The notes under the pieces were generated by a model. That model saw only the letters and a program-made list of their open reading frames with translations, was not told where the DNA came from and did not search any database. Shown here in pieces: positions 3,101 through 53,095 of a DNA stretch of 64,000 bases. Each line of letters starts with the position of its first letter. Within the stretch, counting starts at the first letter, position 1. The stretch is from a virus (lineage: Duplodnaviria > Heunggongvirae > Uroviricota > Caudoviricetes), in the IMG/VR virus record IMGVR_UViG_2576861193_000004, positions 32,001 through 96,000 of that record. One strand, written 5' to 3'. The position numbers and the translations under genes were made by a program.

Positions 3101-4348
3101 TGTCGCCTTCGTGGATGCCGTCGTGGCGCTGCTCTTCGCTGCTGACGCCTGTCTGGTCGCCTCATCTTTTGAAGCAGACGCCGATGATGCCGATGACGCC
3201 GCCGAACTGGCGGACGATGCGGCTGCCGTTTTTGAGGATTCTGCACGGGTTTCCGACGCTTTCGCGTTCGTTTCGGATGTCTTCGCTGCGGAAGCAGACC
3301 TCGCTGCTGCGCTGGCCTGTTCAGTGGCTTGGCCAGCCTTCGTTGTGGCAGTTGAAGCAGACGATGCGGCACTTTCTGCCGATTTTCCGGCGGCGGTGGC
3401 ACTGGCTGAGGCCTGCCCGGCACTTGTTGACGCGGCACTGGCAGACGACGCAGCCGCTGTTTTTGAGCCTGCCGCAGCCGAGGCGCTCTGTCCCGCTGCC
3501 GTTTCAGAAGACCTGGCGTTCGTCTCGGACGTTTTTGCCGCCTTCGCGGAATTTCCTGCCGCCGTTGCCGAGGAAGCGGCATTACTGGCGCTCGAGGCTG
3601 CGCTCGTTTCTGATGATTTCGCTGCCTCTTTTGAGGCCGCCGCATCCCGGGCTGAGGTGGCAGCTTCTGACGCCTTCGTGGTCGCGGTGGATGCAGAAGT
3701 GGCTGCAGATTTTTGTGACGCTGCAGCATTCGTTTCAGATTTTTTCGCATCAGTTGCACTCGCACTTGCGGCACTTTGTGAGGATGCCGCAGCGGATGCA
3801 CTTTGAGACGCTTGAGAGGCTTTTTCTCCAGCGGCATTGGCGCTTTTTGCTGCTGCGGCAGCACTGGCCGCCGCCTCACGAGCTTTGTCGCCAGCAGCAT
3901 CAATCGCGTCAGTGTTATTTTTATACCACTCAACGTTTTCGTTGTGCTCGTTGACGATCTGCATTAGCGGCTTAACGGTCACTTCTGTACCGTCTTCACG
4001 CTCGATTGTCACCTCATCCAGCGCAGTCAACCAACTGCGTATGGACTTGGAATCAGCCGACATACGCGACATTAGCGCAGTAAAGCGCGCGCTAAACTGT
4101 GTTAAGTCGCCTTCATAGGTCGTAATGATTCGGCACGGAACTTCAGACTGAGTTTCGCCGGTATAAGGTTCTGAGAGAACAATGTTCGTATCACTGGTTA
4201 CGCGCTTGATCTCATACAGCTTATTGTCGGGGCCAATGACGATCATCCCCGGCAACACACCATTAGCTGTTACGTTCCAGGCTGTCCCTGCCCCAACCAG
4301 AGTATTGCTGCCCTGTGTAAATGTGATAGTACCTTCCCTGTACCACAT
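176..4348 (-). CDS. stf: side tail fibre protein (Stf-like), 1390 aa
   Basis: Position between J-like gene and tfa. Long Ala/Ser/Thr-rich shaft, three tandem ~36-aa fibre repeats ([13 protein letters not shown]...[19 protein letters not shown]), His-rich C-terminus (GAHTHS repeats) as in lambda Stf / T4 gp37-type fibres. Confidence 0.8.
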
Positions 4349-30163: not shown

Positions 30164-31723
30164 ATGACTGTTCGGATTGTATCTAACGCAGTAAATGCAC
30201 TTATTTCTGGCGCAGATGACAAGGTAAAGCAACTGGTGCAACAGATGTTGAGCTACGAAGTCGAGACTGGCGACTGGAAGGGCACAAGCACGATGTTCAA
30301 CTGGAGTAAAAACTCGTTCCCTGCTGGCTTTGCCAAGCCTGTAGCGGCGAACTTGAACAAGGCGGGCATCAAATGTGTTCATATCCGCAAAGACAAAGCC
30401 CCGGCGCTTGGAAAGCCAAATCCGGCGGTCAACCCATTCCCATACAATCCTGATTATGCATATCAGGATCAGACTGTGGAAACACTGGTTCGAGAGGGAA
30501 TGATGATTGCGCAGATCGCTACTGGTGGCGGGAAATCTAATGTTGCCTGCAAAGCAGCTGCACGTATCGGTCGAATGACATTATTTTTAACAACCCGCTC
30601 TGTTCTGATGTTTCAGATGGCCGAAAACTTCCAGAGATCCATCGACTACCGCGCCGAAAATGGCGAACCGTGGTTAAAAGACCAAAAGGTTGGAGTCATT
30701 GGCTCGGGTGAGTTCCAGGTATCACGACATATCAACGTCGCTACAGTTCAAACTCTGGCAAGTTTCCTTGAAGAACCACCACGCGATGCAACTCCAGATA
30801 AGAAGAGCTACCACCTCAAACGTCGGGACTTGGTGAAACGCTTCCTTTCAAGTGTGTCTCTTCTTATTCTGGAAGAGGCGCATGAGTCTTCAGGCTCTAA
30901 TTTCTATGACATCGCCAGATTATGTGCGAACGCAGACTATCGCCTGGCGCTTACGGCAACGCCGTTCATGAAGGATTCTACGGAAGCCAACATGCGTCTG
31001 ATGGCAGTGGCCGGGCGAATTGAAATAAAAGTCACGGAAAAGTATCTGATTGATAGAGGCATTCTGGCAAAGCCATACTTCCTTTATCATAAAGTTGCCT
31101 ACAAGCCGGACGAGGCCAGAATCAAGGCAGAACTTGCCAACAAACACCTCAATTTTAGAGTAGGTATGAGCACTGCCTACCAAAAGGCTTATCAGTTGGG
31201 GATCGTGTATAATTTGGGACGTAATGAGGCCATTGTTCGCGAAGCATTGCTCTATAAGCAACATTCTCTCAATTGTATGACTCTGGTTCGTCTTAAACGC
31301 CACGGGCAAATCCTGATGGAAATGATGAAAGAGTCCGGCCTTAGAGTTGACTTCATTTATGGGGAATCGAACCAGTCGACAAGGCAAGCAAAGCTGAACA
31401 GTTTAGCGTCTGGCGACATAGATGTTTTAATAGGCTCGACTATTCTGGATGTCGGTGTTGATGTGCCAAACGTTGGTGCGGTCATTCTTGCTGGTGGTGG
31501 GAAAGCAGAAGTTGAAATGAGACAACGTGTCGGTCGTGGCTTACGAGCCAAGAAGAATCAGGCAAACGTGTGTTTTGTCACTGATTTCATTGACATTAGC
31601 AACAAATACCTGTTGTCTCACTCTTATGAGCGAAAACACATCATCGACACCACACCTGGCTTTGCAGAAGGTGTATTGCCTGTTGATGGCGCATTCGATT
31701 TTGGAGTTCTGAAACGAGATTAG
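30164..31723 (+). CDS. SF2 DNA helicase (DEAH-type)
   Basis: Walker A ATGGGKS, motif II LEEAH, motif III TATP, motif VI-like QRVGRGLR. Confidence 0.8.
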   Translation: MTVRIVSNAVNALISGADDKVKQLVQQMLSYEVETGDWKGTSTMFNWSKNSFPAGFAKPVAANLNKAGIKCVHIRKDKAPALGKPNPAVNPFPYNPDYAYQDQTVETLVREGMMIAQIATGGGKSNVACKAAARIGRMTLFLTTRSVLMFQMAENFQRSIDYRAENGEPWLKDQKVGVIGSGEFQVSRHINVATVQTLASFLEEPPRDATPDKKSYHLKRRDLVKRFLSSVSLLILEEAHESSGSNFYDIARLCANADYRLALTATPFMKDSTEANMRLMAVAGRIEIKVTEKYLIDRGILAKPYFLYHKVAYKPDEARIKAELANKHLNFRVGMSTAYQKAYQLGIVYNLGRNEAIVREALLYKQHSLNCMTLVRLKRHGQILMEMMKESGLRVDFIYGESNQSTRQAKLNSLASGDIDVLIGSTILDVGVDVPNVGAVILAGGGKAEVEMRQRVGRGLRAKKNQANVCFVTDFIDISNKYLLSHSYERKHIIDTTPGFAEGVLPVDGAFDFGVLKRD

Positions 31724-31725
31724 TT

Positions 31726-32004
31726 ATGAGCGAAAAGAAAACAACTTATTGCCAAGTGGCATTGTCTGATAAGGCCAATGAAAAACTTGGAAAATTTCAA
31801 ATAAAACTCAAAGAGAAAAAAATCAAGATGTCTAAGGCTGAAGTTATCAATGCCATTCTGGAGACGATGACTATGGCTGAATTTGACAAAGTCACATCTG
31901 CCGTTGGGGTTTCCGCTAAGACGCGTGAGAAAATCATGCGCATCTATGAGAACTCCAATATGACAAAAAAAGATCTAGAGGAAATACTGAGCAGGTTGCC
32001 GTAA
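31726..32004 (+). CDS. hypothetical protein
   Basis: 92-aa ORF starting 3 nt after the helicase stop. Confidence 0.45.
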   Translation: MSEKKTTYCQVALSDKANEKLGKFQIKLKEKKIKMSKAEVINAILETMTMAEFDKVTSAVGVSAKTREKIMRIYENSNMTKKDLEEILSRLP

Positions 32005-32036
32005 CATTTCATATTTACCCCCTATCTACTAATTCT

Positions 32037-32636
32037 ATGATGTGCTCACTTGTTAGAAAGGAGCACATCATGAGTTGGTTAAAAGAATTATCATTTGTTG
32101 ACACCACTGGCGCTAAGAAAAATCATTCTTTCTGGAAAGTCAGCGATCCTTCTGATTTTCTTGTTGGTGCTAATGCTGCTTTTGAATTGCTTAACTTTTA
32201 TCAACGTTATCCTGAAATGAAACACAGTCCACTCCTGTACAGAATAACAAACGATATGAATAGGTCTGGTTTATTATCAAGTGAGTCAGCGAAAGGCTTT
32301 TTTAGCAAAATTACGCCACACATATCATTCGATTCAGCAAACGAAATTGATTATCTACCCACGAAACCTCAAGAACAATTATCTGTACCACCTGAGAAAA
32401 AAGAAAGACGAATTTCCAGCATTGAAAATATATCGAAAGAGCTTCGCACAACAACGTTGAGGCTGCTGAACTTTCTTACGCTACTTAATTGGATAGATGA
32501 TCAAACATTGATTCCATCAACCGATGCGTTGGATAACAGAGTCCTTAGGCTGAACAAAAAATCGCAATTTGGTTTTGTGTTCACCAAAAAAGGTGAAGAT
32601 TTAATCAAAAGAAAATATAGATTATTGAATGATTAA
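32037..32636 (+). CDS. hypothetical protein (probable start at ATG 32070)
   Basis: AT-rich ORF. SD AGGAG before ATG 32070. Start region lies inside an 11-bp-stem hairpin. Confidence 0.45.
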   Translation: MMCSLVRKEHIMSWLKELSFVDTTGAKKNHSFWKVSDPSDFLVGANAAFELLNFYQRYPEMKHSPLLYRITNDMNRSGLLSSESAKGFFSKITPHISFDSANEIDYLPTKPQEQLSVPPEKKERRISSIENISKELRTTTLRLLNFLTLLNWIDDQTLIPSTDALDNRVLRLNKKSQFGFVFTKKGEDLIKRKYRLLND

Positions 32637-32781
32637 TAGTCTACATGCAGGTGTATGAGAGCACCTGCATGTGACACTCATCACATTTTTTGAAGCACAC
32701 ACCTCCGGCTGAAAAAATTTCTTGATTGGCTGAACGATATTTGTAGGCTTTTCAATTGATAACTAAGGTCGGATACTGTAG

Positions 32782-33270
32782 ATGAGTATTTCTATAAACA
32801 AAATAATTAACTCTTTACGACATAAAATATCACATGGAAAAGATGTTCTTTTTAAAGAAAAATATTATCTATTCAACTTAGAGCCGTACAAATGTACAAA
32901 ATTTTATATCACTCGGAACCGTAAATATTCAGTTTCAATCACAAAAGACATGAAGAAAATCTCTTCAGAAGAGTACTTCATATCACATATTTATATCTAC
33001 CCATTTAAATTAGAACCATTAAATATAATTCTTCCTACAATAAAAGGGGTTGAACTTGAAGGTTATACTTTAAGCTCTAACTTTAATGATATGGGTGTAC
33101 AAAAACCAGGGACAAGGTCATACTACGCCTACAAAGTAAAATGCAATAACTACAACGCACTTAACATGCTAATCAGCAAACTTGAAACGGAGATAGTCGA
33201 AGGAAATCTAAATGATGATCATGAAAAATTAGAACAAATAGAAAAACTTAGAAAGTGTGATGTTAAATAA
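32782..33270 (+). CDS. hypothetical protein, first gene of AT-rich three-gene operon
   Basis: ORF with 1-nt gap to next gene, strongly AT-rich codon usage. Confidence 0.5.
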   Translation: MSISINKIINSLRHKISHGKDVLFKEKYYLFNLEPYKCTKFYITRNRKYSVSITKDMKKISSEEYFISHIYIYPFKLEPLNIILPTIKGVELEGYTLSSNFNDMGVQKPGTRSYYAYKVKCNNYNALNMLISKLETEIVEGNLNDDHEKLEQIEKLRKCDVK

Positions 33271-33885
33271 TTGGATTATCATGATATGAAAATGAAACTT
33301 TCGTTACTCCTTGCTTGTATATACCTCCCGGCGTTTCCCGCCAACGCATTATCAGATTTCGTCTCTGACATGCAAAAAACGTACAGCATGTTTACCTCCG
33401 AAGACGTAGTAGAATACAAATCACGAGGTCTGAATCAGCCAGTTTGGTTCAGATTCTCAGACAACGCAGAAGAAACAATACTTAATGGAGGAAAAGAAAG
33501 ATTACGGTTGCAAATTAACGGGACCGCTGTACCAGAAAACGTTAATGTAAGCTCTGACGAAGCCATGAAGCCATCTGGAATTGTTTTAGAAGTTCAAGAC
33601 GGCACACTTTACTGTGATGAAATGGCTACAACAGGTTGCCAAGTAAACATTAGGGTTGGCAATGAAGAGCCTATCGTTACTTACGCCAAGGCTGAAGGGA
33701 ATACAAGTGGAAAGGTATTGTTTATCGATGAAAATATCTCAAAACGTATCGTTCGTGACATACAGAAAACAGCTAACTCTAAATCCGTCGATAAAAAAAT
33801 CTATGTTGAGGTTCCCTTCTTTGTCGTTGGTAACAAAGAATTTAAATTTGGGTTGCTGAAAACACCTCTAAGAGTATCAGAATGA
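33271..33885 (+). CDS. hypothetical exported protein
   Basis: N-terminal signal-peptide-like segment MKMKLSLLLACIYLPAFPANA (AxA site or lipobox-like LLAC). Confidence 0.5.
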   Translation: MDYHDMKMKLSLLLACIYLPAFPANALSDFVSDMQKTYSMFTSEDVVEYKSRGLNQPVWFRFSDNAEETILNGGKERLRLQINGTAVPENVNVSSDEAMKPSGIVLEVQDGTLYCDEMATTGCQVNIRVGNEEPIVTYAKAEGNTSGKVLFIDENISKRIVRDIQKTANSKSVDKKIYVEVPFFVVGNKEFKFGLLKTPLRVSE

Positions 33886-34406
33886 GAACATTGGACATCA
33901 CCTACGGCATACCGGCTGAAGTCTGGCCGCGAGACTACGAACATGCTGAGAACATACTTATGTTCTGGCGGAAGAACAACATTCCTGTAAGAGTCACGCT
34001 TGAAGACGGTCAGGTGTTTTGCATGTACGTTCAGGGGACAATGCCTTCACGCAATAAGCTAGATTTATGCCCGATTCCATATGATAAAGAAAATCGTATA
34101 AGACTCCCACTTGAGCGCATTAGCACAATTGAATCAGGTGTAATCGATGGCATTGCTCGCGAGTTCAAAGGTAGGCTAACAATACATCCAGACTATGTTG
34201 ACAATCAGCCATCACGCCGTGACTTTTTTGCGATATGTCGCAAGGCTTATCAAAACGACCAATCTATAAGGGTCTACATGACAGACGGTCGTGAAATAGA
34301 AGGGGTGTCAAGAGGCGTTGATGCTTGCCAGGTCACTCTTAAGTTAGAAGACGGCAGAAAAATACTTGTTTTCTTCGATTGGGTTGAACGAATCCTTCCA
34401 TTTTAA
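33882..34406 (+). CDS. tandem Rof (YaeO)-like domain protein, candidate Rho antagonist
   Basis: Two repeats resembling the E. coli Rof pattern as recalled (VRVTLEDGQ...RIRLPLERISTIE and VTLKLEDGRKILVFFDWVERI). Overlaps previous gene by ATGA. Confidence 0.4.
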   Translation: MRTLDITYGIPAEVWPRDYEHAENILMFWRKNNIPVRVTLEDGQVFCMYVQGTMPSRNKLDLCPIPYDKENRIRLPLERISTIESGVIDGIAREFKGRLTIHPDYVDNQPSRRDFFAICRKAYQNDQSIRVYMTDGREIEGVSRGVDACQVTLKLEDGRKILVFFDWVERILPF

Positions 34407-34417
34407 ATCTATAAGGG

Positions 34418-34447
34418 TAATAACCGGCTAAGTCCGGTTATTATTTT
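34418..34447 (+). terminator. rho-independent terminator
   Basis: Hairpin AACCGGCTAAGTCCGGTT followed by T-run, 12 bp after the stop at 34406. Confidence 0.65.
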
Positions 34448-34599
34448 ACATGCCATTCATTTAAAACTCTTTCAATGCCACCCCGTATAAATATATAAGG
34501 TTAAAGGCCCGAATTGATTATTTATTTAGGGAACACCTTCGACGATCTCGCTTTTATTTCTAGGACTTTCATCCCTGCAGAAAATTTAAAAAAAAACAC

Positions 34600-34628
34600 T
34601 TGCAATCTTTTTTCACGTATTGATAATT
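34600..34628 (+). promoter_or_regulatory. sigma70-type promoter
   Basis: TTGCAA-17 bp-ATAATT upstream of the 34693 gene. Confidence 0.5.
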
Positions 34629-34692
34629 GAACTCGTCGAAAGCGAGCTGGCTAACGACAGTAAAAATAAATTCATTTTAATTTTTCGTAAGG

Positions 34693-35352
34693 ATGTCCAT
34701 CATGGCTAACATTATCATTTCTAAAAAGTCCATCATTGAAGCTGCTGCCATTGTATCCGACGAGCTGCGCGAAAAAGCAGATCTGGCAACTCAAACATAT
34801 AACGAACATTATAAAAATGGTACGCACACAAAAGCAGACAAAGCAAACATGCAAGCTGCGACCACTAAACTTGCTTACTTCATCAACAACGTTGTGAACG
34901 CAGTAGAAGACGAAAAATTATGCTCTGTTTTCTACTATGCGATTAAAGCAAGCAAACAAGCGCCAGAAGTATTTTTCCGTGATGCAATGACTAATAGTTA
35001 TTCTCTGGAAAAACTGGTTTATCTGGTTAAATCAATTAAATCTGGTAAATGCGTTTACTCCATCGCTGATATGTCTGGATCTCGTGTATTCGCTTTAATC
35101 GATATGATTAACGACGAGATCGACACGTTCACCAATGGCGCTGTTTTCGATTTAATGAATGAAGCTAAAAAAGCGTGCGAAATTAAATTGGACGCTGGCT
35201 ATACTCAAGCCAACCAGTTGATCAATCTTTGCGAACGTCTTGGACTTGTTGAGAAAGTCAAAGGAATGGGAAGCGCAAAAGCTGGTACGCAGCAATATCG
35301 CTTTATTAAAAATGATTTCTATAACTATCTGGCTGATGCTTTCAAAGCGTAA
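34693..35352 (+). CDS. hypothetical protein
   Basis: ORF preceded by a sigma70-like promoter (TTGCAA-17-ATAATT at 34600-34628) and SD AAGGA. Alternative start ATG 34702. Confidence 0.5.
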   Translation: MSIMANIIISKKSIIEAAAIVSDELREKADLATQTYNEHYKNGTHTKADKANMQAATTKLAYFINNVVNAVEDEKLCSVFYYAIKASKQAPEVFFRDAMTNSYSLEKLVYLVKSIKSGKCVYSIADMSGSRVFALIDMINDEIDTFTNGAVFDLMNEAKKACEIKLDAGYTQANQLINLCERLGLVEKVKGMGSAKAGTQQYRFIKNDFYNYLADAFKA

Positions 35353-35365
35353 TTAATGGAATCTT

Positions 35366-35386
35366 GCGCCCACTATGGGCGCTTTT
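35366..35386 (+). terminator. rho-independent terminator (copy 1 of repeated hairpin)
   Basis: GCGCCCACTATGGGCGC followed by TTTT. Confidence 0.6.
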
Positions 35387-35399
35387 AAGGAGCTTAATC

Positions 35400-35630
35400 A
35401 TGTTTATTCTTATCGCTGGCGTTAACGTGCGCAATGAATATTTTGTTAATCGCATCGCTGGGATCGCTGGTTACGCTGGGCGCGCAGTCGAGTTCATAAA
35501 TGAAACAACGCGAAGAATTGACTTATTGAACGACCAGGAGCGAAAAAAAGCAGACGTGAATGACGCTGATATATTTTTAATGTTGAAAGCGTTTGTAGAA
35601 ATGGGATTCAAAATTAGTTTACACAAATAA
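35400..35630 (+). CDS. hypothetical small protein (76 aa)
   Basis: ATG 35400 with SD AAGGAG. Flanked on both sides by copies of the same terminator hairpin. Confidence 0.45.
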   Translation: MFILIAGVNVRNEYFVNRIAGIAGYAGRAVEFINETTRRIDLLNDQERKKADVNDADIFLMLKAFVEMGFKISLHK

Positions 35631-35635
35631 AATCG

Positions 35636-35660
35636 AGCGCCCACTATGGGCGCTTTTTTC
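35636..35660 (+). terminator. rho-independent terminator (copy 2)
   Basis: GCGCCCACTATGGGCGC followed by T6, followed at 35683-35706 by a second hairpin GCGCCATCATTGGCGC plus T6. Confidence 0.65.
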
Positions 35661-36114
35661 GTTTCCAATACTCCCACCATAACGCGCCATCATTGGCGCG
35701 TTTTTTATTGTCTTTAACTCGCTCCAACAACATAAAAATAAGCACCAAAATAACGCCATAGACGCGCTTTTATATCCTTGTCAGTACATACCCATTACTT
35801 AACACATTAACGCGCTTAAAACGCGTTATATTGCGCTATAGAGTATGGTTAATCATTGGCTTTTAGTCTTGCTATGTGATCCGCGTTTATTTGTCGGCGC
35901 GGATCGGCTCTTTGTGTTGTTTTGTATCCGCTCGCGTATTATGTGCGCGTGATTTTTCACATAATCACACCACTTAATCACATATGTGATTACGCTACGA
36001 AAGAAATCTGGATGTCTCAGGCGACGAAAGTCATCATAATTTTCCCCGCTCACCTGTCCGACAACCGCTGGTTGGATTCCACCAGCTTCCCGATGTTTTT
36101 TCTACATAAAGGCG

Positions 36115-36240
36115 AATGCAGCCGTTTCCCGAAAAAATCCTGGCCGTTTCCCGTCGGCTCATGAATGCGTTCCTCGCCGTTTCTGAAAATTTCCCTGCGG
36201 CAGCTGGTGGCTATAGAGAAAGGGCCGTTTCTGGCCCTCT
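36115..36240. repeat. iteron cluster 1 (four GCCGTTTCC-type direct repeats)
   Basis: Copies at about 36121, 36143, 36176, 36224 (spacings 22, 33, 48 bp). Contains GCTGGTGG (Chi sequence) at 36203-36210. Confidence 0.7.
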
Positions 36241-38888: not shown

Positions 38889-39244
38889 AAAGCAATCCTT
38901 AAACAACATGTTTTCTTGATGGTGTTATTATCGCAATAACGCACAGGCGAAAAAGGATTTTATTCCGGTGAATGTGGTTTTGGCAGTGAGTTTTCAGGTT
39001 CAGTACCGAGTACACTTTTTACATTATTCTGATTTAGTGGCCGAAGGTGGCTGGTGGGCAGAATAATCATCTCCCCGAAAACCTACTGAAATCGATTGTG
39101 ACCCGCTGACTGTCTGGCACAATTACGCTGTAGTTGGGCATTCAGAGGGAATCCAGCGGTAAGTAAGTTCGCCTGCACGTGAGCGCCTCTCTTCTTCCCG
39201 CACATTACAGGTGGGTAGCCGCAACTCTCCCTATCGCTATACCG

Positions 39245-39385
39245 GTACGCCGCCGTTCCTGAACCGGCATCGAGCCTTTTCCCGAAATCCACACAGGCAA
39301 CTCGACCGTTTCCCTGAAAACCTCCAGCCGTTCCCCGAAGGCAACCCAGCCGTTTCTGTAGCGGGATGCAGCCTTTTCCCTGTAT
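39245..39385. repeat. iteron cluster 2 (six (A)GCCGTTTCCC-type direct repeats, 22-bp periodicity)
   Basis: Copies at about 39252, 39274, 39305, 39327, 39349, 39371; the last four form an uninterrupted 22-bp tandem array. Confidence 0.75.
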
Positions 39386-39419
39386 GGACCTAAGGCTGAC
39401 CGTAGGGGTGTTACGGGGG

Positions 39420-40330
39420 ATAAAATCAGGAGTTGATTAAATACGAAAAAGGAGGCGACACCCCTCCTTCCCTCCCCACTTATACATACCTGTCTTGTTC
39501 GCTATACATGTTGTGTTTTCTTCGTGTTTTATCTGTCTCAACCTCTCTATAGGCGTTAATGCTCACTCCTTCCAGAATGTTCTATACGGCGACTATTTCT
39601 GTTGGTGAATTGGGTGTGTTGTTTTCTCTGTCGGTGTATGTGGTTTCGTTCGTTTTGCGGTGGTTCTTCTATGGGGTGTTCTCGTCGTTTTGGTGATTGT
39701 TCTTCTCCGTGTATGGAGTAATGGCAGGTGGGCGATTCCTTTCGTTATTGTGTTTGAGTTGTTTGTCTGGAGTGTGAAAGGCTTTTGTAGTTATTCGTGT
39801 ATTGGGTAATGGCGTTTCCCGTGATTGTTATGTTTCGTGTCTTTTGGGATTGAGAGAAACCTTGCGGTTACAGGCTTCGTTGGGGTTTCAGTGATTCTGG
39901 TGTTTCTTCGCTGTTTGGGTAATGGCGTGTCGTGGGTATCGCGCGTATGAATGTTTTCGGATTGCCTGTGAAAGTTAGGTTGGTTGTCCGGTAGCCTGGG
40001 GAGAAGAGGTGGGTCTTTTCGGTAGCCTGCCATAAAGAGGTTGGTTGTTTTGGGGAATGGCATGTGTGTTATTTAGTTGTTTTGTTATGCCTGAAAATAA
40101 GTTGTTTATATGGTTGTGTAACGCAACGGGAACGATTTTGAGCGTGTGTTTTTGTTGGTGGTGTGTTGGGTCGTCTGTGGTGAAAATTGGACGCTGTGGC
40201 GCTGTCTGCTGCGTAGAATTACGGGTATAAGAAGTGATGTGTGAATACGTCAATTTTTTAGACCAAATCGGGTGAAAGCGTTGACGTTTCGTTGATCTGT
40301 TATTCAGTTGTTTTCTTATTGGTATAAACA
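39420..40330. other. ORF-poor, strongly G+T-skewed segment with periodic GGGTAATGGCG-like motifs
   Basis: Plus strand is almost only G and T over about 0.9 kb. Repeated motif at about 39712, 39800, 39918, 40052 and tandem CGGTAGCCTG / GGTTGGTTGT pairs. Track ORFs here have implausible composition. Confidence 0.6.
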
Positions 40331-41855: not shown

Positions 41856-43889
41856 TTACTTAACCTGGTGGCCTGGTTTAGCACCAGCATCCGGGCTTAA
41901 CAGGAAGATATCTTTCCCGCCGGGGCCAGCAGCCATCACCATGCCTTCGGAGATACCGAAGCGCATTTTACGCGGAGCCAGGTTAGCCACCATAATGGTG
42001 TGACGACCAATCAGTGCCTGTGGGTCTGGATAAGCAGAACGGATGCCTGAGAAGACATTACGCTTTTCACCACCGAGATCCAGTGTCAGACGCAGCAGTT
42101 TGTCAGAACCTTCGACAAACTCCGCGTTTTCAATCAGCGCCACACGCAGGTCAACTTTGGCGAAGTCGTCAAAGGTGATGGTTTCCTGAATCGGGTCGTC
42201 AGCCAGTGGGCCAGTTACCGGTGCAGCTGTGGCTTTCACTTCTTCTTTGGATGCTTCCACCAGTGCTTCCACCTGTTTCATATCGATACGGTTATACAGT
42301 GCCTTGAACGGATTCACTTTATGGCCCAGCAGCGGTTGCTGGATACCATCCCAGGTCAGTTCTGTATTCAGGAATGCTTCTGCACGTTCAGTCAGTTTCG
42401 GCAGTACCGGTTTCAGGTACGTCATCAGCACGCGGAACAGGTTAATGCCCATAGAGCAAATCGCCTGCAGGTCGGCATCGCGGCCTTCCTGCTTCGCCAC
42501 CACCCACGGAGCCTGTTCATCAACATAGCGGTTAGCCAGGTCAGCCAGTGACATGATTTCACGGATAGCTTTGCCAAATTCGCGGCTTTCCCACGCTTCA
42601 CCAATCACTTCAGCGGCATCAGTGAAGGTTTTGTACAGTTGCGGGTCAGCCAGTTCGCTTGCCAGCACGCCGTCAAAACGTTTGTTGATAAAACCTGCAT
42701 TACGGGAGGCCAGGTTAACCACTTTGTTCACGATATCGGCATTCACGCGCTGAACAAAATCTTCCAGGTTGAGATCGATATCATCAATGCGCGAAGAGAG
42801 TTTCGCAGTGTAGTAGTAACGCAGGCTGTCGGCGTCAAAATGATTCAGCCAGGTGCTGGCTTTAATAAAGGTGCCGCGAGACTTGGACATCTTCGCGCCG
42901 TTCACCGTCACATAGCCGTGAACAAACAGGTTGGTCGGCTTGCGGAAGTTGCTGCCTTCCAGCATGGCAGGCCAGAACAGGCTGTGGAAGTAAACGATAT
43001 CTTTACCGATGAAGTGGTACAGCTCGGCGGTGGAGTCTTTCTTCCAGTATTCGTCGAAGCTGGTAGTGTCGCCGCGTTTGTCGCACAGATTCTTGAAGGA
43101 ACCCATGTAGCCAATCGGCGCGTCCAGCCAGACGTAGAAATATTTGCCCGGTGCGTTCGGAATTTCAAAACCGAAGTACGGCGCATCGCGGGAGATATCC
43201 CACTGTTGCAGGCCAGATTCAAACCACTCCTGCATTTTGTTTGCCACCTGCTCCTGCAACGCACCGCTGCGGGTCCATGCCTGCAACATTTCGCTGAAAG
43301 AGGGCAGATCAAAGAAGAAGTGTTCAGAATCACGCATTACCGGCGTAGCGCCAGAAACCACCGATTTCGGCTCGATCAATTCAGTCGGGCTATATGTTGC
43401 GCCGCAGACTTCACAGTTATCGCCGTATTGATCTGGCGCTTTACATTTAGGACAGGTGCCTTTTACAAAACGGTCCGGCAGGAACATGCCTTTTTCCGGG
43501 TCGTACAACTGAGAGATAGTGCGGTTTTTAATAAAACCGTTCTCTTTCAGGCGAGTATAGATAAGCTCAGACAACTGACGGTTCTCTTCGCTGTGCGTCG
43601 AGTGATAGTTGTCATAGCTGATGTTAAAGCCTGCGAAATCAGTCTGGTGTTCCTGACTCATTTCGCCAATCATCTGCTCCGGTGTGATACCAAGCTGCTG
43701 TGCTTTCAGCATGATCGGCGTACCGTGGGCATCGTCGGCACAGATGAAATTAACCTCGTGGCCGCGCATTCGCTGGTAACGAACCCAGACATCAGCCTGG
43801 ATGTGCTCCAGCATATGGCCGAGGTGGATTGAGCCGTTAGCGTACGGCAGCGCGCACGTCACCAGAATTTTCTTCGCGACTTGGGTCAT
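41856..43889 (-). CDS. metG: methionine--tRNA ligase
   Basis: 677-aa product essentially identical by eye to E. coli MetG ([29 protein letters not shown]...KMSKS...). Track ORF begins at an upstream in-frame start; true ATG at 43889. Confidence 0.95.
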
Positions 43890-44046
43890 AGTAGGCATTA
43901 CTTCTTTGTAGTGAAAAGGGGCTTGATAGTAACAAAATGGCCTTATGTCTGCCATGTGATAACAGCATTTCTCATAAATGATTAAATGTCGTAGCTGGAG
44001 TACACTACAAGGCGACAATTGCGCAAATTAAAATAAAGGAGACGGG

Positions 44047-45147
44047 ATGAGCGAGTCCAAATCGCCGGATGCCCTGAGAGCAATGGTAGCCGGTACGCTG
44101 GCTAATTTTCAGCACCCAACCCTGAAACACAACCTGACTACGCTTAAAGCGTTACACCATGTTGCGTTGATGGATGACACACTGCATGTCGAACTAATCA
44201 TGCCTTTCGTGTGGAATAAGCCTTTTGAAGACCTGAAAGAGCAATGTAGTGGTGATCTGCTCCGTATCACTGGCGCAAAGGCTATTGACTGGAAGCTGTC
44301 GTACAACATTGCCACGCTTAAGCGCGTCAAAAACCAACCAGGCATTAATGGCGTTAAGAACATTATCGCCGTCAGCTCAGGCAAGGGCGGCGTGGGTAAA
44401 TCCTCCACGGCGGTAAACCTGGCACTGGCGTTGGCTGCTGAAGGTGCGAAAGTTGGTATTTTGGATGCCGATATCTATGGTCCATCAATTCCAACCATGC
44501 TGGGCGCGGAAAACCAACGTCCAACCTCACCTGACGGTACTCACATGGCACCTATCATGTCTCATGGCCTGGCAACCAACTCTATTGGTTATCTGGTCAC
44601 CGACGACAATGCAATGGTGTGGCGTGGACCGATGGCCAGCAAGGCGCTGATGCAGATGTTGCAGGAAACTCTATGGCCTGATCTGGACTATCTCGTTCTC
44701 GATATGCCGCCGGGCACTGGTGATATTCAGTTGACGCTGGCGCAGAACATTCCTGTAACTGGTGCGGTTGTGGTAACTACGCCGCAAGACATCGCGCTGA
44801 TCGATGCGAAGAAAGGCATTGTGATGTTCGAAAAAGTCGAAGTGCCGGTACTGGGTATCGTCGAAAACATGAGTGTGCATATTTGCAGTAACTGCGGTCA
44901 TCACGAGCCAATTTTTGGCACCGGTGGCGCACAGAAACTGGCCGAGAAATACAACACGCAGTTGTTAGGCCAAATGCCACTTCATATCTCTCTTCGTGAA
45001 GATCTGGATAACGGAACACCAACCGTTATTAGTCGTCCAGATAGCGAATTTACGGCTATTTATCGTGACCTCGCAGATCGCGTTGCTGCCCAAATGTATT
45101 GGCAAGGTGAAGTAATACCTGGCGAAATCGCATTCCGCGCAGTGTGA
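44047..45147 (+). CDS. apbC: iron-sulfur cluster carrier protein ApbC/Mrp
   Basis: P-loop GKGGVGKSSTAVNLA, CxxC motif (CSNCGHHEP), divergent from metG as in E. coli. Confidence 0.95.
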   Translation: MSESKSPDALRAMVAGTLANFQHPTLKHNLTTLKALHHVALMDDTLHVELIMPFVWNKPFEDLKEQCSGDLLRITGAKAIDWKLSYNIATLKRVKNQPGINGVKNIIAVSSGKGGVGKSSTAVNLALALAAEGAKVGILDADIYGPSIPTMLGAENQRPTSPDGTHMAPIMSHGLATNSIGYLVTDDNAMVWRGPMASKALMQMLQETLWPDLDYLVLDMPPGTGDIQLTLAQNIPVTGAVVVTTPQDIALIDAKKGIVMFEKVEVPVLGIVENMSVHICSNCGHHEPIFGTGGAQKLAEKYNTQLLGQMPLHISLREDLDNGTPTVISRPDSEFTAIYRDLADRVAAQMYWQGEVIPGEIAFRAV

Positions 45148-47062: not shown

Positions 47063-48625
47063 ATGAAAATGACAAGTATTCAACAACGTGCAGAGCTTCA
47101 TCGTCAAATCTGGCAAATTGCTAACGATGTCAGGGGTTCGGTCGATGGATGGGATTTTAAGCAATACGTTCTGGGCGCACTTTTCTACCGTTTTATCAGC
47201 GAAAATTTTTCCAGTTATATTGAAGCCGGTGATGACAGTATCTGTTATGCGAAACTGGATGACAGCGTAATTACTGATGACATTAAAGACGATGCCATCA
47301 AAACTAAAGGCTACTTCATCTACCCCAGTCAGCTTTTCTGCAACGTAGCTGCGAAAGCAAATACTAATGACAGACTGAATGCAGATTTAAACAGCATCTT
47401 CGTTGCTATCGAAAGTTCTGCTTACGGTTATCCTTCAGAAGCAGACATCAAAGGTTTGTTTGCTGATTTCGATACCACCAGTAACCGCCTGGGTAACACC
47501 GTTAAAGATAAAAATGCCCGCCTGGCTGCGGTTCTGAAAGGGGTTGAAGGGTTAAAACTTGGTGACTTCAACGAACATCAGATTGACCTGTTCGGTGATG
47601 CCTATGAGTTCCTGATTTCTAACTATGCGGCAAATGCCGGTAAGTCAGGCGGTGAGTTCTTTACACCGCAGCACGTCTCCAGGCTGATTGCACAACTGGC
47701 AATGCATGGCCAGACCCACGTTAACAAAATCTACGACCCGGCAGCGGGTTCCGGCTCACTGTTGTTGCAGGCGAAAAAACAGTTTGATAACCACATCATC
47801 GAAGAAGGCTTTTTCGGTCAGGAAATCAACCATACGACCTATAACCTGGCGCGTATGAACATGTTTTTGCACAATATCAACTACGACAAGTTTGATATCA
47901 AGCTGGGTAATACACTGACTGAGCCGCACTTCAGAGATGAAAAACCGTTTGACGCCATCGTATCTAACCCACCGTATTCGGTGAAATGGATTGGCAGCGA
48001 TGACCCGACGCTGATTAACGATGAGCGTTTTGCCCCGGCTGGCGTTCTGGCCCCCAAATCCAAAGCTGACTTTGCGTTTGTATTACATGCACTGAACTAT
48101 CTTTCTGCCAAAGGTCGTGCTGCGATTGTCTGCTTCCCGGGTATTTTTTACCGTGGCGGCGCGGAGCAGAAAATCCGTCAGTATCTGGTCGATAATAACT
48201 ATGTCGAAACCGTGATTTCACTGGCACCGAACCTGTTCTTTGGCACCACCATTGCAGTAAACATTCTGGTGCTGTCTAAACATAAAACGGATACCAACGT
48301 TCAGTTTATTGACGCCAGCGAACTGTTCAAAAAAGAGACTAACAACAATATCCTGACCGATGCCCATATCGAACAGATTATGCAGGTATTTGCCAGCAAG
48401 GAAGATGTTGCTCATCTGGCGAAATCTGTCACGTTTGAGACCGTTGTCGCGAATGACTATAACCTGTCGGTAAGCAGCTATGTGGAAGCGAAAGATACTC
48501 GCGAAATTATCGATATCGCTGAGTTGAATGCAGAACTGAAAACCACGGTCAGCAAAATCGACCAGTTGCGTAAAGATATTGATGCGATTGTGGCTGAAAT
48601 TGAAGGCTGCGAGGTGCAGAAATGA
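47063..48625 (+). CDS. hsdM: type I restriction-modification methyltransferase subunit
   Basis: N-terminal HsdM pattern ([10 protein letters not shown]...[17 protein letters not shown]), N6-adenine MTase motif NPPYS, 520 aa as recalled for EcoR124I HsdM. Confidence 0.9.
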
Positions 48626-49857
48626 GCGAGTTGAGTTATCTGGAAAAATTGCTGGATGGGGTTGAGGTTGAGTGGTTGCCATTGGGGAAACTAGGTGAAT
48701 TAGTTCGTGGAAATGGATTGCCTAAGTCTGATTTTACCGAATCTGGGGTTCCTGCCATACACTATGGTCAGATATATACTTTTTACGGATTATCTACTGA
48801 AACAACAAAGTCATTTGTTTCCCATGAAACGGCGAAGAAGCTTAAAAAGGTTAACTCTGGTGATGTTGTTATTACTAACACAAGCGAAAATTTTACTGAT
48901 GTTGGTAAGGCGCTTGTTTATCTAGGTAAAGAGCAAGCTGTTACTGGTGGCCATGCAACTATTTTCAAGCCAAATAGCACTATTATTGGGAAATACTTTG
49001 CCTATTTCACGCAAACGGATTCTTTTGCAAATGAGAAAAGGAAATACTCCAAGGGAACTAAAGTAATTGATGTGTCTGCATCGGATATGGCGAAAATTAT
49101 TATCCCTATCCCCTGTCCGGAAAATCCCAAAAAATCCCTTGCTATCCAGTCTGAAATCGTTCGGATTCTGGACAAATTTACTGCACTTACCGCTGAGCTT
49201 ACCGCTGAGCTTACCATGCGTAAAAAACAGTACAACTACTATCGCGACCAATTGCTGAGTTTTAAAGAAGGTGAGGTTGAGTGGAAAACTTTGGGAGAAG
49301 TGGCTCAATACTCGAAAACAAGAATTAGTTTCGAACTACTTGATGAAAGGAATTATGTTGGCGTAGATAATCTGCTGCAAAACAGAGCAGGAAAATCATT
49401 ATCTAATCATGTACCCACATCAGGTAAATTAACGGAGTTTATACCTAACGATATACTGATTGGGAATATCCGCCCATATTTGAAAAAAATTTGGCAAGCA
49501 GATTGTATCGGTGGAACAAATGGCGATGTATTGGTTATTCGTTGCATAGATAGCTCAATAAATACCAGATATCTATATCAGATTTTGGCAGATGACAAAT
49601 TCTTTGAATACAACATGCAGCATGCTAAAGGAGCAAAAATGCCGCGTGGCAGTAAAGAGGATATAATGAAATACCCAATCCCTGTACCGCCACTCACCTT
49701 GCAAGCTCGCATTGTCGAAATACTCAACAAATTCGATACCCTGACAAACTCCATCACTGAAGGTCTTCCGCGTGAAATCGAATTACGCCAGAAACAATAC
49801 GAATACTACCGTGATTTACTGTTCAGTTTCCCAAAACCTGAAACTGTCAGTAATTAA
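48622..49857 (+). CDS. hsdS: type I restriction-modification specificity subunit, type IC-like
   Basis: Two target-recognition domains separated by a central conserved region carrying the TAELTAEL repeat. C-terminal YYRDLL repeat of the conserved motif. Overlaps hsdM stop. Confidence 0.9.
49186..49209 (+). repeat. 2 x 12-bp tandem repeat CTTACCGCTGAG encoding TAEL-TAEL in HsdS
   Basis: Perfect tandem duplication inside the hsdS central conserved region. Confidence 0.9.
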
Positions 49858-49978
49858 TTGACCATTGCTACCGACCGGGCCACCTTAACACCCGGTCTGT
49901 ATATAGACTATTTTTTACGCGCCGGAAGTCACTCTTAACGCCCTTCCGGCCCTTGCCAGGCGGCACAAAGGATGCGCT

Positions 49979-52900
49979 ATGACTCATCAAACACACACCA
50001 TTGCTGAATCCAATAACTTTATCGTCCTTGATAAGTACATCAAAGCTGAGCAAACAAGCGACAGCTACCAGAGCGAATCGGACCTGGAACGTGAACTGAT
50101 TCAGGACCTGCGGAATCAGGGTTATGAATTTATTTCCGTAAAATCACAGTCGGCAATGCTGTCCAATGTTCGGGAACAGCTTCAGAGCCTCAATGGTGTG
50201 ATGTTTAATGACAGCGAGTGGCGGCGCTTCACGGAGCAGTATCTGGACAATCCCAGCGATGGTATTCTGGATAAGACCCGTAAAATCCATATCGACTATA
50301 TCTGCGACTTTATTTTTGACGACGGGCGTCTTGAGAACATCTATCTGATCGATAAAAAGAATCTCATGCGCAACAAAGTGCAGATTATCCAGCAGTTTGA
50401 ACAGGCAGGTTCTCATGCTAACCGTTATGACGTCACGATCCTGGTTAATGGCTTGCCTCTGGTGCAAATCGAACTGAAAAAGCGCGGCGTGGCGATTCGT
50501 GAGGCTTTCAACCAGATACATCGTTACAGCAAAGAGAGTTTTAACAGCGAAAATTCCCTGTTTAAGTATCTGCAACTGTTTGTCATTTCTAACGGCACCG
50601 ATACCCGTTATTTTGCCAACACCACAAAGCGCGATAAAAACAGTTTTGACTTCACCATGAACTGGGCGAAATCAGACAACACGCTGATTAAAGACCTCAA
50701 AGACTTTACCGCTACCTTTTTCCAGAAACATACCCTGCTTAATGTTCTGGTGAACTACAGCGTGTTTGACAGTAGTCAGACGCTACTGGTGATGCGACCG
50801 TACCAGATTGCAGCTACCGAACGGATCTTATGGAAAATCAACAGCTCCTATAAAGCGAAAAACTGGTCTAACCCCGAAAGCGGTGGCTTTATCTGGCACA
50901 CCACTGGTTCCGGTAAAACACTGACCAGCTTTAAAGCCGCGCGTCTGGCAACTGAACTGGACTTTATTGATAAAGTCTTCTTCGTGGTCGACAGGAAAGA
51001 CCTCGATTACCAGACCATGAAGGAATATCAGCGTTTTTCGCCAGACAGCGTCAACGGCTCGGAAAATACCGCAGGTCTTAAACGAAATCTGGATAAGGAC
51101 GATAACAAAATTATCGTCACCACTATTCAGAAACTTAATAACCTGATGAAAGCAGAAAGCGACCTGCCTGTATACAATCAGCAAGTGGTGTTTATATTTG
51201 ATGAATGCCACCGCAGCCAGTTTGGAGAAGCGCAGAAAAACCTGAAGAAGAAATTCAAACGCTATTATCAGTTTGGTTTTACCGGCACCCCTATTTTCCC
51301 GGAAAATGCCTTAGGCTCAGAAACGACCGCCAGCGTATTTGGTCGTGAATTGCATTCGTATGTAATTACCGATGCGATTCGTGACGAAAAAGTGCTCAAA
51401 TTCAAGGTGGACTACAACGATGTGCGGCCACAGTTTAAGTCTTTAGAGACAGAAACTGACGAGAAAAAACTGAGTGCGGCTGAAAATCAGCAGGCGTTTC
51501 TTCATCCCATGCGTATTCAGGAAATCACGCAATATATCCTGAACAACTTCCGCCAGAAGACTCACCGTACTTACCCCGGCTCCAAAGGTTTTAATGCCAT
51601 GCTGGCAGTAAGCAGCGTGGATGCCGCGAAAGCCTATTACGCGACGTTTAAACGGTTACAAGAGGAAGCCGCTAATAAATCTGCTACCTATAAACCACTG
51701 CGTGTTGCGACAATCTTCTCCTTTGCCGCCAATGAAGAACAAAATGCCATTGGTGAAATTTCCGATGAAACTTTTGATACCAGCGCAATGGACAGCAGTG
51801 CTAAAGAGTTTCTTGACGCTGCAATTCGTGAGTATAACAGCTATTTTAAAACTAACTTCAGCACCGACAGTAACGGTTTTCAGAACTACTATCGTGATTT
51901 AGCCCAACGGGTTAAAAATCAGGATATCGATCTGTTAATTGTCGTTGGGATGTTTTTAACCGGCTTCGACGCTCCAACATTGAACACGCTATTCGTCGAT
52001 AAAAACTTGCGTTTTCACGGCCTGATGCAGGCATTCTCCCGTACCAACCGCATTTATGACGCTACTAAAACCTTCGGTAACATCGTCACTTTTCGGGATC
52101 TGGAACGCTCAACCATTGATGCCATAACGCTGTTTGGTGATAAAAATACTAAAAATGTGGTGTTAGAAAAGAGTTATGCAGAGTATATGGAAGGCTTTAC
52201 TGATGCTGCTACAGGTGAAGCTAAACGCGGCTTTATGGCAGTAGTTTCAGAACTGGAACAACGGTTCCCTGACCCTGCCAGTATTGAAAGTGAAAAAGAG
52301 AAGAAAGACTTCGTTAAACTGTTTGGCGAATACCTGCGTGCCGAGAACATCCTGCAAAACTATGATGAATTTGCCACGCTGAAAGCCCTGCAACAAATCG
52401 ATCTTAGCGATCCTGTTGCGGTAGAAAAATTCAAAGAAGAACATTATGTGGATGATGAAAAGTTCGCTGAATTGCAAACGATTCGTCTCCCTGCTGAACG
52501 CAAGATTCAGGATTATCGTTCTGCCTATAACGATATTCGTGACTGGCAGCGCCGCGAGAAAGAAGCTGATAAAAAAGAAAAATCAACCACTGACTGGGAT
52601 GACGTGGTTTTTGAGGTCGATTTGCTGAAGTCTCAGGAAATAAACCTGGATTATATCCTTGGACTGATTTTCGAACACAACAGACAAAATAAAGGCAAGG
52701 GCGAAATGATCGAAGAGGTCAAACGCTTAATTCGTTCAAGCCTGGGGAACCGGGCGAAAGAGGGCCTGGTGGTCGATTTTATTCAGCAAACGAACCTGGA
52801 TGATTTACCAGACAAAGCCAGCATCATTGACGCGTTCTTTACCTTTGCTCAACACGAACAGCTACGTGAAGCAGAAGCGTTGATTAAAGAAGAAAATCTC

Positions 52901-53095
52901 AATGAAGAGGCGGCGAAACGCTATATTCGCACGTCTTTAAAACGCGAATACGCCACCGAAAATGGCACAGAATTAAACGAGACATTACCAAAACTTAGTC
53001 CGTTAAACCCGCAATATAAAACGAAAAAACAGACGGTTTTCCAGAAAATCGTCACGTTTATTGAAAAGTTCAAAGGAGTAGGTGGGCAGATATAG
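49979..53095 (+). CDS. hsdR: type I restriction enzyme endonuclease/translocase subunit
   Basis: 1038 aa with SF2 helicase motifs (TGSGKT, DECHRS, GFTGTP). Confidence 0.9.

Follow-up and report, generated by a model that had tools for sequence, protein, structure and literature searches.

The DNA analysed here is a 64,000-nt stretch of a viral genome (the window; positions 32,001–96,000 of IMG/VR record IMGVR_UViG_2576861193_000004), and our subject is a 3,981-bp block of seven small genes (g1–g7) that directly follows a UvsW-like DEAD-box helicase gene. In nucleotide comparison, the block is 99.5% identical to the Escherichia coli plasmid p15ODDR and matches ~770 plasmids of roughly 105–125 kb, nearly all of them non-mobilizable; it also matches the phages SSU5 and Cyrano (pLF82). 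Because of these matches, the window is typed, by sequence, as part of an SSU5/pHCM2/pLF82 (Cyrano)-type phage-plasmid of E. coli. In annotated relatives, the block is flanked by the helicase gene on one side and by small minus-strand genes on the other; the helicase gene diverges from ParB-like genes and packaging and head genes, and repA is located outside this part of the element. The block has already been deposited many times, as 'hypothetical proteins' and one 'transcriptional regulator'. An initial annotation, made from the letters of the window, read it as seven plus-strand genes of unknown function and suggested that they are horizontally acquired cargo. All seven open reading frames (ORFs) are present where it had placed them (Table 1), although the likely starts of g2 (32070), g4 (33286), g6 (34702) and g7 (35400) differ from those first given. 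On balance, we favour another reading of the block: a conserved post-helicase module of SSU5-supercommunity phage-plasmids with one replaceable slot, working by the mechanism proposed below, and no single cargo island.

Table 1. Genes and control elements of the post-helicase block, in window positions (aa, amino acids; RBS, ribosome-binding site; z, z-score of the folding energy against shuffled sequences).
Feature	Position	Strand	Description
UvsW-like helicase gene	30164-31723		stop at 31721-31723, just ahead of g1
g1	31726-32004	+	92 aa; small core protein, its translation coupled to that of the UvsW-like helicase; phrog_1466, E 1e-45
Hairpin 5′ of g2	32039-32069	+	g2 Shine-Dalgarno (AAGGAG) in the 3′ arm; -16.4 kcal/mol, z -4.4, 0/200 shuffles as stable
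g2	32070-32636	+	188 aa; cytoplasmic product of an accessory gene; the long ORF matches phrog_13473 at residues 12-199
Hairpin 3′ of g2	32639-32675	+	strong, -24.7 kcal/mol, z -4.7; T-run ~14 nt downstream; no canonical terminator
g3	32782-33270	+	162 aa; rare accessory protein without export signal; phrog_25050, residues 1-162
g4	33286-33885	+	199 aa; beta-rich orphan protein, predicted to be exported via Sec (periplasmic or secreted); its stop and the g5 start share ATGA
g5	33882-34406	+	174 aa; core to the lineage; FljA family (PF03614, 'repressor of phase-1 flagellin')
Hairpin 3′ of g5	34414-34447	+	terminator-like, -15.3 kcal/mol, z -3.8; U-rich tract next
g6 control region	34461-34701	+	upstream invariant blocks; -35 at 34600-34605, -10 at 34622-34627; TAAGGA RBS
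g6	34702-35352	+	216 aa; predicted N-terminal helical hairpin/bundle and C-terminal winged-helix-like domain; probable DNA-binding regulator
GC hairpin between g6 and g7	35366-35382	+	GCGCCCACTATGGGCGC; -13.3 kcal/mol, z -1.7
g7	35400-35630	+	76 aa; small protein, semi-core; the long ORF matches phrog_1585 at residues 13-88
Double intrinsic terminator	35635-35702	+	ends the g6-g7 unit; two 9-pair stems, each with a T-run; -31.2 kcal/mol, z -6.5

The distinction between core and accessory genes comes from tblastn comparisons of the block proteins with 17 loci, covering E. coli, Salmonella SSU5, Yersinia pestis pMT1, Kluyvera, Buttiauxella, two metagenome-assembled genomes and three deeply divergent Klebsiella lineages. 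The helicase gene, g1, g5, g6 and a downstream minus-strand gene of 160 aa are syntenic in every element examined. Identities in the divergent Klebsiella lineages are 66–71% for the helicase, 48–53% for g6 and 25–42% for g5; g1 is found in all syntenic loci at 34–100% identity, and g7 in most elements, though not all. By these sequence comparisons, g1, g5, g6 and largely g7 are core to the lineage, and only g2, g3 and g4 are accessory.

The accessory genes lie in a slot, the gap between g1 and g5; in DNA alignments, this variable middle of the block (32005–33893) has its junctions exactly at gene boundaries. Cyrano has 32751–33893 (g3–g4) replaced, an E. coli D4 plasmid is without 32009–33284 (g2–g3), and SSU5 and pMT1 differ from g1 codon 4 through g5 codon 5. 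Four fillings of the slot can be distinguished: the g2/g3/g4-type genes of this window; a 140-aa lipoprotein (lipobox LLITAC or LLLSAC) in SSU5, pMT1, Kluyvera and Buttiauxella; a 266-aa lipoprotein on the opposite strand (lipobox LLLTGC) in Cyrano, which also has g2; and no gene at all in three loci (L012, L017 and L018), on account of which a rule that an exported protein always precedes g5 was rejected. The alternative fillings are mutually unrelated in sequence, and an export signal is present in all but g2 and g3. Traits of morons (junctions at gene boundaries, flanking hairpins and a GC content of 0.29–0.40) are displayed by g2–g4 only, not by the core genes g1, g5 and g6.

Variable as they are, g2–g4 do not look like newcomers. 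The same gap in the distant Klebsiella quasipneumoniae plasmid pKqq_SB1124_3 (locus L014) holds homologues of g2 (27% identity, E 3e-12), g3 (weak; 30% over 94 aa, E 6e-6, directly 5′ of the FljA-like gene of that element) and g4 (hhalign probability 95.5%). Since these homologues sit in the same gap of so distant an element, the set appears to be old, to have diverged in place and to have been lost or replaced in some branches. The three families are essentially confined to these elements, and by sequence g2–g4 are old residents of the lineage, not recent imports. In L014 (3158–4492), the g4 homologue is on the opposite strand and so runs against both the g3 homologue and the FljA-like gene; the linkage of g3, g4 and g5 thus survives rearrangement, which may mean a functional tie among the three.

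The low GC content that had been taken as a sign of import is real: the block has 0.380 and the window 0.470, with 1-kb bins of 0.34–0.40 inside and 0.47–0.50 in the flanks. However, it is a stable trait of g6 (GC 0.39–0.41) and of the g5–g6 spacer (0.31–0.37) in every element compared, and is therefore no evidence of recent acquisition; we rejected recent horizontal transfer as its explanation. Where the slot is filled by the SSU5-type lipoprotein gene, its GC content is normal (0.51–0.53).

The punctuation of the block by hairpins and terminators was likewise borne out when hairpin strength was judged by folding energy and z against shuffled sequences, with z of -3.8 to -6.5 at the four main sites. 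Terminator-like sites are enriched (12 versus 5.9 +/- 2.9 in shuffles); promoter-like sites are not (17 versus 15.8 +/- 4.2). One promoter is genuine, the 'clear sigma70-like promoter' of the initial annotation: TTGCAA-16-GATAAT at 34600–34627, kept across genera. The hairpin after g5 is almost invariant in nine elements from E. coli, Salmonella, Klebsiella, Yersinia and Buttiauxella. The stable hairpin ahead of g2 buries its Shine-Dalgarno, and this suggests that translation of g2 may be controlled, or be tied to an event upstream. No tRNA or recognised RNA family was found in searches of the block.

The initial annotation took these features to mean that the whole block is imported cargo (morons) for exclusion, defence or host takeover, with 32782–34406 as one three-gene system. 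We consider this unlikely, although part of it holds: g2–g4 vary among close relatives, are GC-poor and bounded by hairpins or terminators, and include an exported protein of a kind that phages frequently employ at the envelope; the slot is filled by an exported protein in most elements, its gene is expressed in the Cyrano lysogen, and the lasting linkage of g3, g4 and g5 may reflect a functional link. Of the seven genes, however, four are core to the lineage (g1, g5, g6 and mostly g7), the families of the slot genes are lineage-confined and diverged in place, and low GC is no mark of import. As the initial annotation had said, no named defence system is matched: PADLOC, Pfam and NCBIfam gave no defence match apart from a spurious hit of g2 to SspC in PADLOC (E 0.024, 10 bits). 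The 'tightly coupled three-gene operon' stands as far as packing goes (the g3 stop at 33270 is 15 nt from the g4 ATG at 33286, and g4 and g5 overlap in ATGA at 33882–33885), but it is a composite, in which an accessory g3/g4 pair is joined to a core FljA-family gene. Homologues of all three are linked in L014; most of the 835 plasmids with g5 are without g3 and g4. Overall, the initial observation was largely right and its interpretation partly so; the block is no freshly imported defence island.

Among the seven genes, g5 is the one that belongs to a named family, and for this reason not all seven can be called genes of unknown function. It matches PF03614 (Flag1_repress) with E 9e-81 and 270.1 bits (cut-off 24), residues 5–171 aligning to positions 1–170 of the 170-position profile, and phrog_1444 ('transcriptional repressor') with E 6e-98. 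For the other six, Pfam, NCBIfam and PADLOC gave no family, and PDB sequence and profile searches with g1, g2, g4, g5 and g6 gave nothing meaningful. As reference FljA we used the fljA product of the Salmonella plasmid pLG25p2, whose gene lies directly downstream of a FliC/FljB flagellin gene; g5 is 36% identical to it over 169 aa (E 5e-34). A back-translated-pattern search for chromosomal fljBA loci recovered phage-plasmid loci only. The gene is found in 835 PLSDB plasmids (Klebsiella 345, Escherichia 229, Enterobacter 92, Yersinia 62 and Salmonella 60) and in every SSU5-like phage record of the phage collection. It is intact everywhere, with no internal stops, and its omega (the ratio of nonsynonymous to synonymous substitution rates, dN/dS) is 0.08–0.18 where dS is unsaturated, including an E. 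coli/Klebsiella pair. These values indicate purifying selection on g5, Klebsiella elements included.

The proposal that g5 is a 'tandem Rof-like' protein was not upheld at the sequence and profile level. With a Rof reference sequence checked against PDB 8w8d/1sg5, hhalign gave probabilities of 4.9% for the N-half and 0.6% for the C-half of g5, and 2% for the two halves against each other; Pfam Rof was absent from the g5 matches at E <= 1. The C-terminal half has a sub-threshold Hfq/LSM match (E 5.6e-4, 19.9 bits versus a cut-off of 27), which hints at an Sm-like fold.

K. pneumoniae is without flagella and Y. pestis is non-motile, which bears on one possible role of a FljA homologue, flagellar lysogenic conversion. 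Here, g5 would be a true FljA orthologue that blocks host fliC translation, leaving lysogens non-flagellated or less flagellated, maybe conditionally (e.g. inside host cells), and, if this were true, protecting them from flagellotropic phages and from host flagellin sensing. The PF03614 match is full-length, motifs are common to g5 and bona fide FljA, the host genera are mostly flagellated, and the Cyrano g5 orthologue rises in B1/B6 and macrophage samples (see below). FljA itself blocks fliC mRNA translation, and a fljA-bearing plasmid turns motile E. coli non-motile (PMC2652032). Against this, g5 is retained, under purifying selection, by 345 Klebsiella plasmids and by Y. pestis pMT1; it is just 36% identical to FljA; and it has no accompanying flagellin gene, unlike every characterised fljA (searches of the block and of 47 kb of the nearest plasmid turned up neither a flagellin nor an invertase gene). 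Furthermore, strain LF82, whose Cyrano copy of g5 is 99.4% identical, is hyper-flagellated and hyper-motile, with long fliC-dependent flagella, and swims better than K-12, in a study that did not check plasmid retention (PMC10809763). Since LF82 is highly motile and g5 is kept under selection in Klebsiella elements, constitutive shut-off of host flagellin is unlikely; flagellar conversion in general, a conditional effect on flagellin included, we also regard as unlikely. No fliC-leader-like sequence scored above chance in the window (best local alignment 27 versus 26.2 +/- 1.9 in shuffled sequences), and we found no literature tying SSU5, pHCM2 or pLF82 to fljA or motility.

A more speculative and rather doubtful idea is that post-transcriptional regulation in SSU5-type phage-plasmids, as one of their core genes, is the primary job of the FljA family. 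Its target would be a non-flagellar RNA, belonging to the element itself or to a host transcript that all Enterobacterales possess, and the flagellar-phase FljA found in Salmonella and E. coli would have been domesticated from it. Flagellar FljA nests inside the phage-plasmid g5 diversity in a simple midpoint-rooted neighbour-joining tree, which is suggestive only. By analogy, the Hin invertase, related to phage invertases, would offer a parallel, and the coupling of g5 to an upstream exported protein would mirror fljB–fljA, where a surface product and the repressor of the competing product are co-expressed.

According to the overlap of their reading frames, g4 is translationally coupled to g5. 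As the initial annotation proposed for the operon, g4 encodes an exported protein: a signal-peptide check found a Sec signal peptide of the signal peptidase I (SPase-I) type, MKMKLSLLLACIYLPAFPANA/LSD, with predicted cleavage at ANA/LSD. The features of this signal peptide, though not its sequence, are retained in homologues at 52–58% identity, and export via Sec is what the sequence indicates. Two Cys in the mature part are invariant, but the signal-peptide Cys varies among homologues, and for this reason g4 is not a lipoprotein. In its coding sequence, the proportion of synonymous differences (pS) is about 0.8 (saturated), versus about 0.3 for nonsynonymous differences (pN). The gene occurs in 65 PLSDB plasmids and its family is an orphan: 5.8 billion proteins contain 14 clusters of it, and an exhaustive profile search of 1.84 billion recovered 9 representatives.

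g3 is the most AT-rich gene of the block (GC 0.288) and is present in just 23 plasmids, every one SSU5-type; a single divergent copy (55% identity) again stands beside a g4 homologue. g2 has homologues of 40% identity in three loci (L004, L005 and L011), and was missing from SSU5, pMT1 and the E. coli D4 plasmid among the loci compared. Its start at 32070 is that of RefSeq, the earlier choice of 32037 being probably too early. RefSeq gives shorter versions of g3 (32950–33270) and g4 (33388–33885), and inspection of the sequence revealed no clear Shine-Dalgarno ahead of g3, which raises the question whether some ORFs have arisen by chance in an AT-rich spacer, chiefly g3, itself AT-rich, or g3 and g4 in their long forms. 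This is very improbable: the full-length translations are conserved from residues 1–7 on in homologues of 51–58% identity, synonymous sites are saturated (as given above for g4), the PHROG profile spans g3 from end to end, and the signal-peptide features of g4 are conserved.

Judged by sequence, g6 and g7, downstream of g5, make up a unit of their own, served by a promoter and control region that are highly conserved. No other protein of the block is as well conserved as g6 (82–87% identity across genera). Fold searches with its predicted model returned mostly non-specific helical hairpins, a winged-helix match being the sole interpretable one, and on this model g6 is probably a winged-helix DNA-binding regulator. 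The 295-bp g5–g6 spacer has a mean identity of 80% over nine elements, in which synonymous sites of the flanking genes are saturated, and the conserved form of the g6 promoter is TTGCAA/TTGATT-16-GATAAT. Blocks at 34461–34600 are invariant from E. coli to Yersinia and Klebsiella and comprise a repeated TATAAGGGT(A/G)AT motif, ATTTATTTAGGnAACACCTTCGA and TTTATTTCTAAGACTTT; these are probably operator sites for a regulator. In comparison with SSU5/pMT1-type elements, synonymous sites of the helicase gene (30164–31723) are saturated (pS about 0.77, pN about 0.05). Synonymous divergence of g6 (34702–35352) is far lower (pS 0.37–0.59), which suggests extra constraint at the nucleotide level or a more recent exchange of the g6 segment.

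For g7, an AAGGAG RBS ahead of the ATG at 35400 indicates that the earlier start at 35364 was too early. The GCGCCCACTATGGGCGC hairpin between g6 and g7 is repeated at 35637–35653, in the first terminator 3′ of g7. In L004, g7 is duplicated: a second g7-like gene, 43% identical, lies in tandem (7145–7645). Because the GCGCCCACTATGGGCGC hairpin follows both g6 and g7 and L004 has this tandem gene, small gene-plus-terminator cassettes are suggested to duplicate at the g6/g7 spot. Iteron-like direct repeats with GCCGTTTC(C/T) lie immediately downstream of the block at 36114–36235, in at least four copies spaced 22–48 bp apart; candidates for binding them are g6 and the product of the neighbouring 160-aa minus-strand gene.

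Evidence on when these genes are active comes from Cyrano. Misson et al. re-analysed RNA-seq data of LF82 on Cyrano, and the values used here are those of their Table 1 and S1 Table (PMC9928086). In stationary lysogeny broth (LB; sample BLB), with a Cyrano median of 9.8, these tables give 114 for g1 (listed as a moron, 12x), 46 for the helicase, 28.6 for the slot lipoprotein (2.9x), 18 for the FljA-like gene, 9 for g2 (about background) and 5.9 for g6, with g7 at the floor. In B1/B6 and macrophage samples (MB1/MB6, where MB6 is 6 h after macrophage infection), log2(FPKM+5), where FPKM stands for fragments per kilobase per million, is 7.1–8.1 for the FljA-like gene, 7.9–9.4 for the lipoprotein and only 2.8–5.7 for g6. 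From stationary LB to B1/B6 and macrophage samples, the FljA-like gene goes up about 8–16-fold (log2 4.2 to about 7–8.1). In the Cyrano lysogen, g1, the slot gene and the g5 orthologue are expressed, and g6 and g7 are essentially off. The same study names another gene, CYRAN_45, as putative lysogeny repressor of Cyrano.

We propose the following mechanism for the module. In the lysogen, g5 would act like FljA, as a small RNA-binding protein on an mRNA leader, stopping translation. Because of purifying selection in non-flagellated Klebsiella and the strong motility of the carrier LF82, its target would more probably be a transcript common to all hosts, or one of the element itself, than host fliC alone. 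The exported slot proteins would have their place of action at the envelope, most likely in superinfection exclusion or in masking a receptor; among the genes of this block, superinfection exclusion would be a plausible role for g4 alone. g6 would regulate by binding DNA through its winged helix; kept off during lysogeny, it would serve the lytic or replication programme, its sites possibly being the conserved blocks 5′ of its own gene or the downstream repeat region.

Several points weigh against this proposal. An identity of 36% to FljA is, at the level of sequence, no guarantee that g5 binds RNA, an Sm/Rof-like fold is unsupported by the profile comparisons (probabilities 0.6–5%), and no RNA-target candidate for g5 was found in a search covering 64 kb of the roughly 110-kb element; retention of the plasmid in LF82 was left unchecked by the motility study. 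As for the slot, it is not essential, because it is empty in three loci, and g4 has no sequence or fold similarity to known exclusion proteins in Pfam, PDB and fold searches. The AlphaFold2 model of g4 is of low confidence (predicted local distance difference test score, pLDDT, 54.7), with weak beta-sandwich matches only. Finally, the expression values come from Cyrano, which is without g3 and g4.

A neighbouring explanation is that g1, g5 and g6 are an element-intrinsic regulatory cassette that jointly controls lysis–lysogeny or plasmid replication and copy number, with the slot genes as passengers. We regard this as possible, though we would not put it first. Strict synteny with the helicase and deep conservation are consistent with it, as are the helicase coupling of g1 and its strong expression in the lysogen, the winged-helix-like, lysogeny-silent g6 with its conserved control region near iteron-like repeats, and the conservation of g5 whether or not the host is flagellated. 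However, these proteins have no homology to known repressors, antirepressors or Rep proteins, repA is elsewhere on the element, and the putative lysogeny repressor named for Cyrano is CYRAN_45 (PMC9928086). The recurring exported slot proteins would also be left unexplained.

SSU5-type phage-plasmids are very common in clinical Enterobacterales, including the pHCM2-type of Salmonella Typhi, pMT1 of Y. pestis, pLF82 of adherent-invasive E. coli (AIEC) and hundreds of Klebsiella plasmids. In each of them, a homologue of the flagellin translational repressor FljA is fixed as a core gene, expressed in the lysogen and unlinked to any flagellin gene. Should g5 silence host flagellin conditionally, it would be a widespread lysogenic-conversion factor for motility, H-antigen, innate sensing and susceptibility to flagellotropic phages; should its target be non-flagellar, this would be a new role for an RNA-binding family known from one system only. 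The exported-protein slot, in turn, offers a compact candidate site for superinfection exclusion in phage-plasmids.

Elsewhere in the window, a complete type I restriction–modification (R-M) system lies on the plus strand at 47063–53095, with hsdM (520 aa), hsdS (411 aa) and hsdR (1038 aa); it is not in the matching Cyrano region as given by the LF82 expression table. If the window has genuine defence cargo, it is this system and not the block. A metG-like ORF on the minus strand (about 41856–43890) and apbC (44047–45147, a NUBPL/ParA-type P-loop NTPase) are host-like housekeeping genes in a region (41856–45147) with a GC content of 0.50–0.52, and such metG-like/apbC cargo is also found in ST648 phage-plasmids (PMC12429562). 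Compositional outliers of the window are 3001–4000 (GC 0.594, AT skew -0.33) and 39001–40000 (AT skew -0.30).

Compared with known systems, g5 resembles FljA of Salmonella (fljBA, and fljA of pBSSB1/pLG25p2) in its end-to-end alignment and in the motifs DIxYG..AExWPRDY, PSRRDxFxIC and FDWVxRI, and it shares with the plasmid-borne fljA of pBSSB1/pLG25p2 a location on a mobile element. It differs in having neither a flagellin gene nor an invertase beside it, its 5′ neighbour being an exported non-flagellin protein, a lipoprotein or nothing, and in being core to a phage-plasmid lineage that includes non-flagellated hosts, with a natural host, LF82, that is motile. To Rof/YaeO (a Rho inhibitor with an Sm-like fold) and Hfq/LSm, the likeness is at the motif level only ([D/R]DY, a hydrophobic strand, then L-x-DG); g5 does not match Pfam Rof, and the profile comparisons of its halves with Rof and with each other are not significant.

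A further comparison is with phage morons and envelope-acting superinfection-exclusion proteins such as Cor of phi80/N15, Llp of T5 and SieA of P22. Like these, g2–g4 are variable among close relatives, hairpin-bounded and GC-poor, the slot product is exported, and the slot gene of Cyrano is expressed in the lysogen. Unlike them, g4 is no lipoprotein (its signal is of the SPase-I type, and the lipobox of the Cor/Llp type is found in the slot genes of SSU5 and Cyrano instead), it has no sequence or fold similarity to them, and the families are old residents and not imports. The closest counterparts are the blocks of SSU5 (SSU5_119-123), Y. pestis pMT1 and Cyrano/pLF82 (CYRAN_112-117), which have the same order of helicase, g1, slot, FljA-like gene, g6 and g7. 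In Cyrano, g1 (CYRAN_117) is 100% and g5 (CYRAN_114) 99.4% identical to the proteins of this window, and the block is 97% identical outside the slot. The difference lies in the slot: a 140-aa lipoprotein in SSU5 and pMT1, g2 and a 266-aa lipoprotein on the opposite strand in Cyrano, and g2–g3–g4 here.

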